Part shown: one piece after another, positions 44,785 through 52,552 of the stretch | How the letters are laid out: every line of letters begins with the position of its first letter | Numbering within the stretch: position 1 is the stretch's first letter | Assembly: GCA_910583745.1 (NCBI GenBank) | Contig: CAJTZC010000001.1 | Span: forward strand, 34,746-98,745 | Reading direction: 5' to 3' | Source: an uncultured Bacilli bacterium | GTDB lineage: Bacteria; Bacillota_I; Bacilli_A; RF39; UBA660 | DNA length: 64,000 nt | Translations under genes and position numbers: made by a program | Notes under the pieces: model-generated | The model's database searches: none | What the model was told of the DNA's origin: nothing | What the model saw: the letters and a program-made list of their open reading frames with translations, nothing else

Positions 44785-45030
44785 TTACTTGTCTTTTAGC
44801 TTTCTTTGTAAACTAGGTATCATCGTGCCATTTATATCTTTCGACACGTTTGCAAGGGTTCTCTGTGTGTCATCCATTTCTTTTTTGATGAAGGATTCCC
44901 CATCGATTTCGATGCTTCTCTTGGCTACTTTTTCGGCAAGAGAAAGCTCGCTTTGTAGAGCTTCTATTTTGTCGTCGATGCTCCGGAGTCTCTCGATTAT
45001 CTCTCGATATTTTCTATTTTCTTCGTTCAC
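44785..45030 (-). CDS. Small helical protein (81 aa), possible WXG100-superfamily/Lap-like T7SS accessory
   Basis: Predicted coiled-coil/helical hairpin composition. Sits immediately upstream of the giant gene. Confidence 0.35.
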   Translation of the reverse strand: MNEENRKYREIIERLRSIDDKIEALQSELSLAEKVAKRSIEIDGESFIKKEMDDTQRTLANVSKDINGTMIPSLQRKLKDK

Positions 45031-45329
45031 TAGTTCAGCCCTCCGTCGAATTTTTTGATGGTCTCGTTGCTCAGCGTCTCGTATAGTTCAATGGCTTTTT
45101 TTAGAGTTGTTGCGTATTGATTTCGTTTCGAATAGAGCATGGAGCATTTCATTTTAAGGTTGTCGATGTCATTTAAAAGTTGTGGAATGTTTTGAGACTG
45201 GTAGAACTCTCTGCAGACTTCGAGTTGGCTACAAATGTCTTCTAGAGTTTTTCTCTCTTCTTCTTTGTAATATTCTATCTGTTCGATGTCTTTTTCGAGC
45301 AGTTCTCTATCTAAAAGTCCCTCATTCAT
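45030..45329 (-). CDS. Small helical protein (99 aa), WXG100-sized
   Basis: Helical, ~100 aa, no W-x-G motif. Stop/start abutting the next gene. Confidence 0.35.
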   Translation of the reverse strand: MNEGLLDRELLEKDIEQIEYYKEEERKTLEDICSQLEVCREFYQSQNIPQLLNDIDNLKMKCSMLYSKRNQYATTLKKAIELYETLSNETIKKFDGGLN

Positions 45330-45340
45330 ATTCCTCTCTC

Positions 45341-45910
45341 CTATGGCAAATCGAAATCAAATTCGTTTATTTTTACTTCCTCTAGCGTCTTTATCTTTGC
45401 CTCGATTTTGTTTTCGATGGCTTCGATTTCTGAAAACATTTCTTTGGCTTTTGTTTTAAAATTTTTACAAGCGATTCTTACATTGACGACTTTTCTTCGT
45501 GCGGCTTCTATCGAGGGCCTAACGCTGTAATAGAAGCTTCTATCTATTCTATCGAACTCTGCCACTATCGCATTGGTGTGGAGATAACATTCGTCGAAAG
45601 TATGTAGCAAGGTGTCCTTTTCATTGAGGTTGCACTTCAGTTTTTTTCCGAATGCACTGTATCTCTCGTAGATGAAGTCGTAGAGATTTTTTCTCTCTTT
45701 CAAAGACAGTTTCAATAAGTCTGTCTCTTTTCTATCTCCGTAAATTTCGCTTTCAAACTTTTCCGAGTTCCCATCGCGCCAATCGGTGCAACTCGTCTTG
45801 AGTTGATTGAACAGATTGAGTTCTATTTCTTCATATTCATCTAAAAGTTTCTGTAATCGTTCGATGGCGTTTTTTAGCGATGAAATATCAACTTCTAGCA
45901 TAAATATCAC
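45341..45910 (-). CDS. Helical hypothetical protein (189 aa)
   Basis: No TM. Coiled-coil-like. Confidence 0.35.
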   Translation of the reverse strand: MIFMLEVDISSLKNAIERLQKLLDEYEEIELNLFNQLKTSCTDWRDGNSEKFESEIYGDRKETDLLKLSLKERKNLYDFIYERYSAFGKKLKCNLNEKDTLLHTFDECYLHTNAIVAEFDRIDRSFYYSVRPSIEAARRKVVNVRIACKNFKTKAKEMFSEIEAIENKIEAKIKTLEEVKINEFDFDLP

Positions 45911-50100: not shown

Positions 50101-51709
50101 CTTCTGACGTCTGTATCCTGTTTTGCAACTCCATGTATAAGAAATCACATAGATTTTTTGCTCCTTCGACTGTGGATGAGAAGAATCGAATCTGTAAATC
50201 GTTCGAAAAAGTGTGTTTTAGATAACGTGTATAGGCCAGTTTTCCTTCGTTGGAAGGCGTCGTGATGATGACCAGTTTTATATCTTCGTAGCTATAAAAT
50301 GTCAAAAGTTGCAAGATGATATTATTGAGCATATTGTGGCATTTCTCGTTTTCACCCATGATGGCCGTGATTCTGTTTTCGAATAGGGAATAACCGATGG
50401 GCACTTCGTGAATGTACTTGTATTCTTTTACCATGAGGTCTGCTTCGCGTTTTAAATCGTCTTCATCGATGGTGAAGCCCTCTTTTGGATAGTTGACTTT
50501 GGCGTCTAAAAGCTCGTCTCCGATGCCAACGCGCACTTGTAGGAAGTCGTTTTGGTCTATTCTTCTGTCCCAAAACCGAGCGCGAGCAGTTTGGATAATG
50601 TTCAAACATTCTGATACGGGAAGGAGATTTTCAAAGAGGATTTCTTTCTGCAGTTTTTGCTCCGCCTCGAGTTCTTCTCTCTTCTTGTTTAAGTATTTTG
50701 TATATTTATGTATTAGTTCTCGTTTTCTTCGCGCCTTGATGACCTTATTGAACATTCTCGTCAAGGTCGGCCACAAAATCGTCGATGCGAGCATGGCGGC
50801 GGAGGAGACGATGGCTGGCAAGGCTTGTGCGAAGCTCGCCTGGCCAGTCGACACTCTCGAGAGTGCGTTCAAAAGCATCACTCCGGATACGAGGCCCATT
50901 GTGAGCATCGGTCCCACTGTCAACAAAAGAGGCATTTCGTTTTCACCTTCTTTTCGCGGCGGCGGGCTCAAATCTATCTCTTTGGTTTTGATTATTCTCC
51001 TTATTCTCGGTGCTTTCGAAAAGTATTGTTCTTTGGAGAACAGTTCTTTATCTTTTATCTCCAAGTCTTGTGGTTCGTTTCCATAGGACAATTGATAGGA
51101 TGAGATGCGTGCTGTTGTGAAGTTGCAACTCATCGAATTGTTCGGATTGTTTAAAAGAAGAAAGCCGTTTAGGACCATTATCTTTAGGCCATATATATTC
51201 AATTGGTCTCCACTTTTTATCGTGTGATTGTTCGTATTCGGTTCGACAATGGAGTTGTTTAAGTAGATGGGACAAGTTCCCGTATCGAGTAAGATGTAGT
51301 TGTCTTCCATCCTTATCTTACCTGCGACACCTTTTACGTAGGGACAATTGTATTTGACGTTGCACGACGCATCGTTTCCTATGACGAGATTCAACTCTTT
51401 AGTGAAACTGTACGGCAAGAAGCTCGAATCGAACGTGTCCGTCACGAAGATGAGGTATTCTATTCCTGCCCTTTTGATGACGTAGTAGTTGTTTTTCTCT
51501 AGGCGAATTCTTCCTTGTACCATGCCGTTTGACATGACGCTTACTTCTGAAGTCGAATAGATATGCCACTCTGCATCGATAGCCTCTATGTTAATCAGTT
51601 TCGATTCTTCCATCGGGTCTTCATCGAAATTAAAATTTCCAGAAACTTTTTGAGGAATGGTAAAACTTAGAATTTTATTTTTTAAATATAGATAGATTTT
51701 CATTGTCAT
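47123..51709 (-). CDS. essC: EssC/YukB-type T7SS ATPase (FtsK/SpoIIIE family)
   Basis: 1528 aa. N-terminal FHA-like region. Two TM helices. Three P-loop domains, including GLIAGMTGSGKSEFIITYIL...ILIDYKGGG. Confidence 0.85.
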   Translation of the reverse strand: MTMKIYLYLKNKILSFTIPQKVSGNFNFDEDPMEESKLINIEAIDAEWHIYSTSEVSVMSNGMVQGRIRLEKNNYYVIKRAGIEYLIFVTDTFDSSFLPYSFTKELNLVIGNDASCNVKYNCPYVKGVAGKIRMEDNYILLDTGTCPIYLNNSIVEPNTNNHTIKSGDQLNIYGLKIMVLNGFLLLNNPNNSMSCNFTTARISSYQLSYGNEPQDLEIKDKELFSKEQYFSKAPRIRRIIKTKEIDLSPPPRKEGENEMPLLLTVGPMLTMGLVSGVMLLNALSRVSTGQASFAQALPAIVSSAAMLASTILWPTLTRMFNKVIKARRKRELIHKYTKYLNKKREELEAEQKLQKEILFENLLPVSECLNIIQTARARFWDRRIDQNDFLQVRVGIGDELLDAKVNYPKEGFTIDEDDLKREADLMVKEYKYIHEVPIGYSLFENRITAIMGENEKCHNMLNNIILQLLTFYSYEDIKLVIITTPSNEGKLAYTRYLKHTFSNDLQIRFFSSTVEGAKNLCDFLYMELQNRIQTSEGDSRLFKPYYLIITDNYSQIRRHHFAKTLTEMDANVGFSLLILEKQLSKLPSKCANFINLDTNSSTILKNSFESQELINFKDEVNGNIDMLAVTRMLANIPIEFEEGNKLLPDTVTFLEMERVGKVEQLNILNRWDTNDSTTSLRAEIGLDEEGSMMYLDLHEKYHGPHGLIAGMTGSGKSEFIITYILSMAINYSPDDVAFILIDYKGGGLAGAFENKATGVCLPHLAGTITNLDKAEMDRTLVSIDSEIKRRQQIFNEARDKLGESTIDIYKYQRYFKEGRLDEPVPHLFIISDEFAELKSQQPDFMDNLISVARIGRSLGVHLILATQKPSGVVNDQIWSNTKFRVCLKVQDAQDSKEMLKRPEAASIKQTGRFYLQVGYDEFFALGQSAWCGAKYYPSEKIVKQVDKSVDFIDDNGNVIKSIQSGNNIKIEAQGEQLAAIMKNIIEVAAMSNKRAKRLWLNAIEPIILVDNLEKKYGFKPVAYDVRAVLGEYDAPERQEQNLLTYSLAKDGNTIVYGNDEIERENMLNAILYSICKTHSSKEINIYIVDYGSEQMRIFDGFPQIGGLVFLGDDEGIKNLFKLIAEEIKSRKKRFLPFGGTLESYNARNEKKMPQILFIINNYEGLLEIYNTISEDIASLARECERYGIILLITCNTPATVGRRVSQSFNNKYTLHLSDSSDYYGVFGSKSKTKPRDIQGRGLANTNGIHEFQTASIVPENVDRNDYILNVSKKIKELDSTTAKAIPALPEKVTLDIVEKDINSLAKVPIGISKETLRVVKYDFTAFTSTSIVSNKLNNLDAFMSSLLEVFLRIPGLTIFFLDTTQALPSAKSLLYNERKINYFDSAFDENVDRLIDVEENPENKKYNKLYVFYGIEKLKSKTEPSKIEKLLNAIKTAENSNMILCDSSKNLKAMDMDLWFSKIKNNTDGIWIGKGFAEQQNFRLSRITKEMSADYKTNFGFFINESNAELIKVLEFNNLNREGDENEE

Positions 51710-51796
51710 ACACTCCTATTTATTCTATCGAAATTATACCATAGTTTGAAAATAAGTGAAAGAAAAAAGCAAGAAATATCTCTCGCCTTTGTGTAA

Positions 51797-52552
51797 TTAT
51801 TTTCCCGTCCCTGCTCCGATGACTTTGTATGAGTCTTCACTCGGTTTTATCATAAAATAGCTCCACCGCAGGACGTGGTCTTTCTTGTACGTTGGACTGG
51901 CTCCAGCGAACAGGGTGTCGTATTCGTCTTCTTTTTTCATGTCGTAGTCTTTTAGAAATACTTTGTAGTTGACTGAGCAAGAAAACTCACTGACGTCGGG
52001 GTCGCCTTGGTAACAGTATTCGATGTCTGCCACTTCAATTTTCGTCACCAACTTTGCTAAATCGGCGCCATTTTCTACTGACTTTTCGATGTAATCCGGT
52101 AAGACTTCACTCAGCTTTTTTATGAAGGCGTCGTTCTTCGTGCTCTCATAATACATCGTGTACATCTTCTCACCGAAGAGGCCATCTTTGATGAGGATGT
52201 AGTCTCCTCGATGGTATGCGTCTGTCTTGAGTTTGTCTAAAGTCACTCTTTTATTGTTCACAGTGTAATTTCCACTTTCGGTCGTATGGCTGCCGTCCGG
52301 TTTGGTCGAGTATTTGTTGAACACACCTTTCAATGAAAAGTCGATATAACTATTTGTATCCATCGTGACGTATTTTTTCCCCTGTACGATGTCTTTTTTA
52401 GAAGCCTTTGTCGTCGTGTCTTCCTCTTTTGTACCCGTATCTTCGATAGGTGTGTCGACATTTTTCGTCCTAATGAAATAGGTAACTCCTATCGTTGTGA
52501 ATAGGAAGGCGATGGCGAGGACAATGAATAATATTCTGTTTTTGTTTTGCAT
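51797..52552 (-). CDS. Membrane-anchored extracytoplasmic protein of unknown function (possible T7SS accessory)
   Basis: 251 aa, single N-terminal TM. Immediately upstream of essC on the same strand. Confidence 0.35.
   Translation of the reverse strand: MQNKNRILFIVLAIAFLFTTIGVTYFIRTKNVDTPIEDTGTKEEDTTTKASKKDIVQGKKYVTMDTNSYIDFSLKGVFNKYSTKPDGSHTTESGNYTVNNKRVTLDKLKTDAYHRGDYILIKDGLFGEKMYTMYYESTKNDAFIKKLSEVLPDYIEKSVENGADLAKLVTKIEVADIEYCYQGDPDVSEFSCSVNYKVFLKDYDMKKEDEYDTLFAGASPTYKKDHVLRWSYFMIKPSEDSYKVIGAGTGK

Follow-up and report, generated by a model that had tools for sequence, protein, structure and literature searches.

The stretch analysed, termed the window throughout, comprises 64,000 nucleotides (nt) of contig CAJTZC010000001.1 from an uncultured Bacilli bacterium (assembly GCA_910583745.1) and carries a gene cluster built around EssC, the membrane ATPase of type VII secretion systems (T7SS). 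Coordinates are positions in the window, and L-numbers (L001-L028) denote the related or reference loci with which the cluster was compared. An original prediction, made from the sequence alone, had outlined a minimal T7SSb-like locus between 44785 and 52552; its open reading frames (ORFs) were all recovered at the same coordinates, every one on the minus strand. The features of the locus and of its upstream neighbour, with protein lengths in amino acids (aa), are as follows.

51797-52552, minus: 251-aa protein with a single N-terminal transmembrane (TM) helix; a neighbour, probably not a component
51733-51790, minus: terminator-like hairpin (51790-51765), then a promoter-like site (51760-51733); consensus scan, pattern match only
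47123-51709, minus: EssC/TsxC, 1528 aa, membrane FtsK/SpoIIIE-type ATPase (TIGR03928)
46846-47133, minus: ubiquitin-like protein, 95 aa, TsxB/EsaB analogue by predicted fold
46741-46839, minus: terminator-like hairpin (46839-46815) and promoter-like site (46769-46741); pattern match only
45985-46665, minus: tandem WXG100-like protein, 226 aa, positional TsxA/EsxA analogue, from predicted fold and hhalign
45341-45910, minus: helical protein, 189 aa, candidate adaptor or Lap/LXG-like partner, from family conservation and sub-threshold matches
45030-45329, minus: small helical protein, 99 aa, conserved partner, from the family alignment
44785-45030, minus: small helical protein, 81 aa, conserved partner, from the family alignment
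36002-44758, minus: giant polymorphic protein, 2918 aa, candidate exported effector, from a shared N-terminal motif
35722-35991, minus: 89-aa ORF, possible immunity or accessory gene, from its position directly after the giant gene
35092-35706, minus: 204-aa ORF, candidate immunity protein for the giant protein, from position only

Transcription proceeds in the order 251, 1528 (EssC), 95, 226, 189, 99, 81, 2918, 89 and 204 aa. The start of the 95-aa gene overlaps the essC stop by 11 nt, the start of the 81-aa gene overlaps the stop codon of the 99-aa gene by 1 nt, and the 95-aa and 226-aa genes are separated by 180 nt containing terminator-like and promoter-like sites. These pattern matches suggest two transcription units, one comprising essC and the 95-aa gene and the other running from the 226-aa gene onward. 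The 251-aa protein displays a Kyte-Doolittle TM segment at residues 4-29 and no family match in Pfam and NCBIfam scans. Its gene probably lies outside the locus because it is not conserved, a homologue being found upstream of EssC only in the closest relative (L008) while other loci carry different upstream genes, and because terminator- and promoter-like sites lie before essC. At the other end, the 2918-aa protein and the two small ORFs that follow it belong to the locus. The extent originally proposed is thus revised on both sides, with the 251-aa gene probably removed and the downstream end moved to 35092.

EssC and its ubiquitin-like partner

The 1528-aa protein is a true EssC, as had been called from the sequence, and supplies the EccC/EssC-type membrane ATPase that characterises T7SS. 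It matches TIGR03928 with 962 bits (cutoff 778) and Pfam FtsK_SpoIIIE with E=5.7e-33, and its closest PDB match is B. subtilis YukB (9qks, E=2.6e-123). One TM segment lies at approximately residues 259-283, and a second, recognised by eye only, at approximately residues 293-320. A single canonical Walker A motif, GMTGSGKS, is located in D1 at residue 710 and is intact in all 13 clade members; Listeria EssC likewise shows one by the same pattern. The essC genes across the clade are intact, encoding proteins of 1523-1529 aa that are 59-86% identical. The first 235 residues of the clade EssCs align with the N-termini of four T7SSb EssCs, corresponding to the FHA region (hhalign probability 82%, P=1e-5, 123 columns; P=0.63 for the reversed control), and a weak Ki-67 FHA match was also observed at the N-terminus (E ~0.8). 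By these profile comparisons, the EssCs of the clade and of T7SSb have homologous FHA-like regions at the N-terminus. FHA domains of T7SSb EssC normally bind EssB.

Levels of identity between this clade and T7SSb EssCs are low (25-27%) compared with those among T7SSb EssCs themselves (36-62%). In a crude neighbour-joining tree, which holds no published sequences of subtypes d-j, the clade is monophyletic and presents a long branch. Its distance from T7SSb is similar to that of a Brevibacillus EssC, whose match to the EssC of the window starts only beyond the FHA region.

The predicted fold of the 95-aa protein is that of a ubiquitin-like protein. The AlphaFold2 model, computed on 33 homologues (predicted local distance difference test, pLDDT, of 87.7), displays the β-β-α-β-β order of a β-grasp. 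Foldseek comparison of the model with the PDB revealed 339 matches at E<=1e-3; nearly all of the 50 listed are ubiquitin-like, and the N-terminal domain of EccD5 (ESX-5, T7SSa) appears among them at ranks 2, 3 and 10. The C-terminus reads ...NSVGL, without Gly-Gly, and the protein therefore combines the small size, the predicted ubiquitin-like fold and the absence of a C-terminal Gly-Gly by which TsxB/EsaB proteins are recognised. At the level of sequence it is not a member of the YukD family: none of 13 family members matches YukD (Pfam PF08817) at E<=1, A. rectalis EsaB, as positive control, scores 30.4 bits, and hhalign against Listeria EsaB gave a probability of 2%. Weak UBL_UBAC1 matches were observed in nine of the 13 members. 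The earlier statement that EsaB is present is consequently supported for fold, EccD5 being among the top Foldseek matches, and for gene position, but not for the YukD sequence family.

The 226-aa protein, the helical trio and the giant protein

Predicting structures for the helical proteins had been proposed as a way of finding WXG100-like hairpins, and the AlphaFold2 model of the 226-aa protein (pLDDT 91.4, predicted template modelling score 0.85) indeed comprises two helical hairpins: a first pair of long helices with its turn at W51, a linker of 30 residues, and a second hairpin turning at F164-L-G166. Invariant positions in the subfamily of the window are W51-Y-A-P-E-A...F-F, W92-A and F164-x-G166-x-x-Q. 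Over the broader family G11 and G166 are invariant and W51, W92, F164 and Q169 almost invariant; near the N-terminus, a T-G-F/Y-N-P-E motif is common. This family comprises 366 clusters at E<=1e-3 in 1.8 billion representatives, with members mostly of 210-245 aa and a few longer ones that carry the domain N-terminally. A single-protein metagenome scan for distant relatives returned one 1.7-kb contig, and tblastn against plasmids found no relatives.

Both halves of the protein were compared by hhalign, in a targeted comparison using the broad family alignment as query, with a diverse WXG100 profile of nine members. The N-terminal half aligned over 60 columns (P=5.7e-5; reversed control 0.065) and the C-terminal half over 93 columns with F-L-G placed on W-x-G (P=3.2e-5; reversed control 0.094), both approximately 1000-fold better than their reversed controls. 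The family hidden Markov model (HMM) also matches, with E=0.0012 among 786 segments, a Brevibacillus ORF adjoining essC that is a bona fide WXG100 protein (70 bits), aligning W51 on the W of its W-D-G. Scattered sub-threshold Pfam matches to WXG100, EspC and DUF6507 were found in distant relatives. For the 226-aa protein itself, no Pfam (including PF06013) or NCBIfam match reached threshold and PDB sequence and fold searches were silent or generic; for its family, hhalign was negative against a narrow Listeria-type EsxA profile and against the WXG100 pair of L015 (described below), and the test for internal duplication, half against half, was negative or weak. A signal was obtained only with the diverse WXG100 profile and the broader family alignment. 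On statistics that are moderate, the 226-aa protein looks like two WXG100-type hairpins in one chain, a divergent tandem WXG100, and the WXG100 component looks hidden in this protein rather than absent. The earlier observation that the helical proteins contain no W-x-G motif is literally true, but W-Y-A-P-E-A and F-x-G in the 226-aa protein and W-Q-D-G in the 189-aa protein are conserved there.

The G+C (GC) content of the 226-aa gene, described previously as higher than that of its neighbours, does not stand out: at 40.5% it is marginally above the following three genes (37-40%) and below EssC (42.8%) and the 251-aa gene (42.3%). What distinguishes the gene is its GC content at third codon positions (GC3), which at 0.27 is the lowest in the locus (0.44-0.54 for the rest of the locus, 0.40-0.55 across all neighbouring genes). 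This suggests a codon usage distinct from that of the locus, possibly tied to high expression.

The 189-, 99- and 81-aa proteins form a trio of small helical proteins. Counted from the ATG that databases call, the 189-aa protein has 186 aa; it belongs to a family present in 12 of the 13 genome loci, with a conserved N-W-Q-D-G...F motif. Sub-threshold matches to LXG (E=0.0028, 18 bits against a cutoff of 26.5) in one of 13 members and to WXG100 in two of 13, together with a WXG100 mark described as faint in L024, were observed; hhalign of the family against WXG100 was not significant. The 99-aa family, present in 12 loci, and the 81-aa family have no Pfam, NCBIfam or hhalign match, all three families were negative against the narrow Listeria-type EsxA profile, and no ORF of the locus matches the Lap-type families DUF3130 or DUF3958. 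From size, helicity and position, the trio are candidate Lap/LXG-like adaptors.

A giant ORF directly follows the 81-aa gene in ten of the 12 trio-bearing loci and, where not cut by a contig end, encodes 1233-2920 aa; in L014 the trio is present with no adjoining giant gene. These proteins share an N-terminal region of approximately 75 residues, with the motifs hNhNhDF..KLDKLY.DA.K and YGGT.SS..ET.DLS, followed by a low-complexity (disordered) linker. Across loci the proteins share 36-44% identity over residues 1 to ~995; the C-terminal parts vary from one protein to another and are partly duplicated. Searches of Pfam, NCBIfam and the PDB gave no match for the giant protein, and so none to LXG (PF04740). 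Profiles of its N-terminus and of the 95-aa and 189-aa families, when searched against PDB sequences, retrieved coiled-coil noise or nothing. Inspection by eye of residues ~1200-2918 revealed two duplicated modules of ~620 aa with Cys...His protease-like motifs (GGCGW / GAHAM and NGCAY / GGHAM), and at the C-terminus a Cys-His-Asp transglutaminase-like motif (CKGWA...HYWVE...D); profiles confirmed none of these modules. The constant N-terminus and variable C-terminus constitute a polymorphic-toxin layout and make the giant protein a candidate exported effector. The 89-aa ORF, which has no Pfam match, is called as a gene in L001 and L002, with 88-89-aa ORFs in the same position in L019 and L022. 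The 204-aa ORF has no family match in Pfam and NCBIfam scans; homologues of it (39-50% identity) follow the giant gene in L018 and L019, and in L022 a 207-aa ORF occupies this position. Their positions fit immunity or accessory genes.

Conservation of the locus and its missing partners

The genome scan, which sampled one genome per species, yielded 13 loci, to which four metagenome loci were added, giving 17. The order EssC, 95, 226, 189, 99 and 81 aa is kept in at least 12 of the 13 genome loci; one short contig is without the EssC end. The four metagenome loci agree with this order and have intact ORFs. Most hosts bear the label "uncultured Bacilli bacterium". One is named Candidatus Faecimonas intestinavium, Faecimonas corresponding to genus CAG-877 of order RF39 in the GTDB (PMC8035907). 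Contigs of L009, L013, L018 and L019 were deposited in metagenome-assembled genomes (MAGs) labelled Methanobacteriaceae, Methanobrevibacter and Muribaculaceae; these archaeal and Bacteroidota labels are most likely binning errors.

In L008, the closest relative, the 251-aa gene, EssC, the 95-aa and the 226-aa genes are followed directly by a P-type ATPase gene. What L008 is missing is precisely the set of genes from the 189-aa to the 204-aa one, a pattern that fits a substrate module separable from a core of EssC, ubiquitin-like and 226-aa proteins. A P-type ATPase gene also lies downstream of the locus in the window. From one locus to the next, the genes preceding essC show no relationship, and in L018 a methyltransferase-like housekeeping gene (by eye) lies directly upstream of it. 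Insertions recur in the gap between the ubiquitin-like and 226-aa genes (L007, L019, L024, L025); they include an HTH_38 (transposase-like) gene in L007 (8386-9582), an 840-aa surface protein with Listeria-Bacteroides repeats in L019 (7259-9781) and a pair of 69-aa and 637-aa (CW_7 repeat) proteins in L024 (7714-9839).

EssB, EsaA, EssA and a threshold-level WXG100 protein were found neither in the locus, nor in the 11 kb upstream, nor in the 17 related loci. The profile HMM searches that the original prediction had proposed were run with Pfam and NCBIfam on every ORF of the locus and gave no match to EssB, EsaA, EssA, YukD, WXG100, DUF3130 or DUF3958 and none above threshold to LXG. In phmmer searches of the six-frame window and 19 related loci with Listeria EsxA, EsaA, EssA, EsaB and EssB, only EssC and DUF4176 were recovered. 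Nothing was retrieved by Listeria EssB (EssB/YukC) at E<=1, no polytopic protein of ~1000 aa, as expected for EsaA/YueB, lies next to essC in any locus, and the same searches were negative for EssA/YueC, a small and poorly conserved family for which their sensitivity is limited. In the canonical T7SSb control loci, the EssB, EsaA, EssA and EsxA genes are contiguous with essC. The DNA upstream of 52552, previously pointed to as a place where essB, esaA or essA might lie, encodes a histidine kinase, ABC transporters and a response regulator (52.6-60.2 kb) and no T7SS genes. The statement that EssB, EsaA, EssA and a canonical WXG100 are not recognisable thus holds for the ORFs of the window and extends to the related loci. 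Besides EssC, no membrane protein is conserved across these loci. A wall-less host was considered as a reason for the loss of EsaA and dropped, as most RF39 members are predicted to keep a peptidoglycan wall (PMC10868615).

Two relatives carry additional genes near the cluster. A DUF4176 gene follows the 81-aa gene directly in L015 (11757-12071) and L012 (8444-8767), DUF4176 being a T7SSb toxin-chaperone family, and L015 contains, 8 kb downstream of the cluster (19819-20428), genes for a bona fide WXG100 protein (PF06013, 28.2 bits) and, after it, a 90-aa V-W-Y-G protein. Canonical T7SSb-type accessory genes therefore coexist with the variant.

Elsewhere in the window, a Gram-positive conjugative type IV secretion system (T4SS) cluster occupies 14218-24576 on the minus strand, with flanking ORFs from ~12.4 to 28 kb. 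It encodes a VirD4/TraG-type coupling protein (749 aa), a VirB4-like ATPase (595 aa), a protein with an M23 peptidase (715 aa) and several unassigned proteins of 160-737 aa, and points to an integrative conjugative element at a distance of ~10 kb from the T7SS module. Between 60500 and 64000 the GC content falls to 20-30%, against a window mean of 38%, over an unassigned 467-aa ORF and a 381-aa HTH_3 protein; this stretch may be a foreign island or the edge of a higher-GC segment. One minus-strand run at 3503-9588 encodes a family-2 glycosyltransferase, a HEAT-repeat protein, an unassigned 708-aa protein and a CotH kinase-family protein, and may be a cluster for surface polysaccharide or one related to the spore coat. 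Scanning the window for Rfam families and tRNAs gave no matches.

Comparison with known systems and interpretation

Published subtypes T7SSa-j, surveyed in RefSeq, share a near-universal core of TsxA (WXG100), TsxB (ubiquitin-like) and TsxC, with further partners that include kinases, phosphatases, FHA proteins, Ig-rich proteins and a beta-propeller (Garrett, Higginson and Palmer 2024, PMC11217815). The locus resembles T7SSb (S. aureus Ess, B. subtilis Yuk and Listeria; L020, L027 and L028) in several respects: an EssC with an FHA-like N-terminus that passes TIGR03928, a small ubiquitin-like partner, a small helical secreted-type protein beside the ATPase, DUF4176 in relatives, and a polymorphic toxin-like gene accompanied by small helical partners and followed by candidate immunity genes. 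This contrasts with the absence of EssB, EsaA and EssA from the locus, the lack of a YukD sequence match in the ubiquitin-like protein, a 226-aa tandem WXG100-like protein where T7SSb has an EsxA of ~100 aa, a candidate substrate without LXG, the low identity of EssC and the first position of essC in the gene order. T7SSg, the simplest published set, has a propeller protein and an ATPase lacking FHA, and its WXG100 proteins are encoded by two distinct genes (PMC11217815). Like T7SSg and the other subtypes c-j, the present locus is based on TsxA, TsxB and TsxC with lineage extras, and it is similarly simple to T7SSg; however, TsgC has no FHA while this EssC does, and one fused gene stands here in place of two WXG100 genes. 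None of the partners of T7SSc-j (Ser/Thr kinase, PPM phosphatase, vWA, DUF6382-FHA or other separate FHA protein, Ig-type TsdI, DUF5050 propeller, EspG-like, AAA+ TsfV) was found among the ORFs of the locus, and their domains are likewise missing from the flanking genes of the window and the Pfam marks of related loci. The component set is outside the published gene sets of T7SSa-j, the comparison with subtypes d-j being one of component sets. A literature search for a further subtype (T7SSk) or for tandem WXG100 proteins found none.

The locus on an Agathobacter rectalis plasmid (NZ_CP143948.1, L026) offers a further comparison. It comes likewise from gut Bacillota, its EssC has the top identity among plasmid matches (~30-33%), and only WXG100, EsaB/YukD and an FHA protein are annotated near EssC, with no EssB, EsaA or EssA. 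In contrast with the locus described here, its WXG100 and YukD proteins are canonical by Pfam (71 and 30 bits), the host belongs to Clostridia and not Bacilli, and homologues of the 226-, 189-, 99- and 81-aa families are absent. In this cultured gut Lachnospiraceae member, a separate 227-aa FHA ORF overlaps the start of a shortened 1169-aa EssC (4609-11854 of L026), and L026 is apparently another minimal T7SS. EssC-only membrane sets may be commoner than the literature suggests, since the A. rectalis locus too has only WXG100, YukD, FHA protein and EssC annotated.

The complexes of LXG toxins with Lap proteins in T7SSb present the same arrangement of two to three small helical proteins just upstream of a large toxin-like gene, with immunity-like genes after it. 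The present locus differs in that a short motif and a disordered linker take the place of the LXG helical domain in the giant protein, the 189-aa helical protein is separate, and DUF3130 and DUF3958 are unmatched. Similarly, the EsxA-EsxB (ESAT-6/CFP-10) heterodimer of T7SSa and the EsxA homodimer of T7SSb contain two hairpins like those predicted here, which would pack into a four-helix bundle, but the 226-aa protein is one chain with a linker of ~30 residues, and its W-x-G turns have become W-Y-A-P and F-L-G.

The locus probably encodes a functional (predicted), reduced T7SS of a distinct subtype in uncultured gut Bacilli (RF39 for one named relative). A reduced variant with divergent accessory components was one of the two possibilities raised originally, and it is favoured by the conserved, intact block in at least 13 species-level genomes, by the intact Walker A motif, by the FHA-like homology, by the ubiquitin-like partner and by DUF4176 in two relatives. 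The other, an EssC co-opted into a different export route, gained no positive support and is very improbable; an example would be a role in moving DNA or proteins together with the conjugative T4SS located 20 kb away. EssC does belong to the FtsK/SpoIIIE family, and a T4SS with VirD4-like, VirB4-like and M23 peptidase proteins does lie at ~14-25 kb; this T4SS has its own coupling protein, however, no T4SS genes flank essC in related loci, and the partners of EssC are T7SS-typical (ubiquitin-like, WXG100-like, DUF4176). A decaying T7SSb remnant that no longer secretes would explain why four of the six canonical genes are lost, and why L008 has also lost the block of the 189-, 99- and 81-aa and giant genes. 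It is very improbable in view of essC genes that are intact and similar throughout the clade with a conserved Walker A motif, small proteins rich in invariant residues, a gene order kept in at least 13 species and giant ORFs of 2000-2900 aa without interruption.

That the locus is minimal and the machine is not, an ordinary T7SSb having its EssB, EsaA, EssA and EsxA elsewhere in the genome, is unlikely. The FHA-like region retained in EssC, which binds EssB in T7SSb, and the bona fide WXG100 gene 8 kb away in L015 speak for this explanation. Against it, no such genes were found within ~10 kb of essC in the 17 loci or anywhere in the 64-kb window, the partner genes of the canonical control loci are contiguous with essC, the EssC clade is far less similar to T7SSb EssCs than these are to one another, and the WXG100 protein of L015 is paired with a second small W-x-G protein, resembling a substrate partner and not a core gene. 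Replacement of EssB, EsaA and EssA by non-homologous, lineage-specific membrane proteins, such as the single-pass 251-aa protein, is quite unlikely. Single-pass or signal-peptide proteins are encoded upstream of essC in the window and in L008, L012, L014, L015 and L017, but these candidates are unrelated in sequence and size (158 to 535 aa), L018 has only the methyltransferase-like gene in the 0.8 kb upstream and L009 an HD-domain protein, and terminator-like and promoter-like sites part the 251-aa gene from essC in the window.

Several points weigh against a functional reduced T7SS. All host genomes are uncultured MAGs and the evidence is purely computational. EssC has retained its FHA-like region although EssB, its usual partner, is absent from the locus. 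The WXG100 link stands at HMM-HMM P values of ~1e-4 to 1e-5 in a targeted comparison and was missed by Pfam, NCBIfam, the narrow EsxA profile and PDB folds, and the 189-, 99- and 81-aa proteins have no significant Lap, LXG or WXG100 profile match. Position is the only basis for the functions proposed for the trio as adaptor, for the N-terminal motif and for the downstream ORFs as immunity genes. The absence of partners was seen at the level of the locus, and EssB, EsaA or EssA may be encoded in trans; that further components may be encoded elsewhere in the genomes is the main uncertainty.

For a reduced T7SS of this kind, a working mechanism can be outlined. In mycobacterial ESX-5 structures, the TM helices of EccC line the central pore. 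In the present system, EssC would oligomerise and its own TM helices would form the channel. The ubiquitin-like protein would bind and stabilise EssC as YukD does YukB; T7SSb assembly depends on YukD (preprint 10.1101/2025.01.24.634720). Secretion requires EsxA-type proteins, which contact EssC (PMC11217815); the 226-aa protein would be the single-chain equivalent of an EsxA dimer or EsxA-EsxB heterodimer, acting as a co-secreted or activating substrate. The 189/99/81-aa trio would act as a helical adaptor, analogous to the LXG-Lap targeting complex, and recruit the giant protein through its short conserved N-terminal motif, while the two downstream ORFs would protect the producer. In its strongest form, in which EssC and the ubiquitin-like clamp are the complete translocon, EsxA and EsxB are fused, and giant multi-domain effectors of 2000-2900 aa are recruited, in place of an LXG domain, by a short N-terminal motif docking on a free-standing trio adaptor, this proposal is speculative and on balance doubtful. 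If true, a translocon of EssC and clamp with motif-docked giants would represent a new mode of substrate recognition and the smallest natural T7SS.

Hardly anything is known of interbacterial or host-directed weaponry in the uncultured gut Bacilli to which these loci belong. The channel former of T7SSb and the accessory membrane proteins that are truly required are open questions in the field, and the pared-down locus hints at how few parts a T7SS may need. A natural system with EssC as its only conserved membrane protein would be a minimal model for reconstitution and structural work, and a tandem WXG100 protein, with both hairpins on one chain, would hold the EsxA-type partner at a fixed stoichiometry. 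Giant proteins that share a short N-terminal motif, without LXG, point to an undescribed targeting signal.

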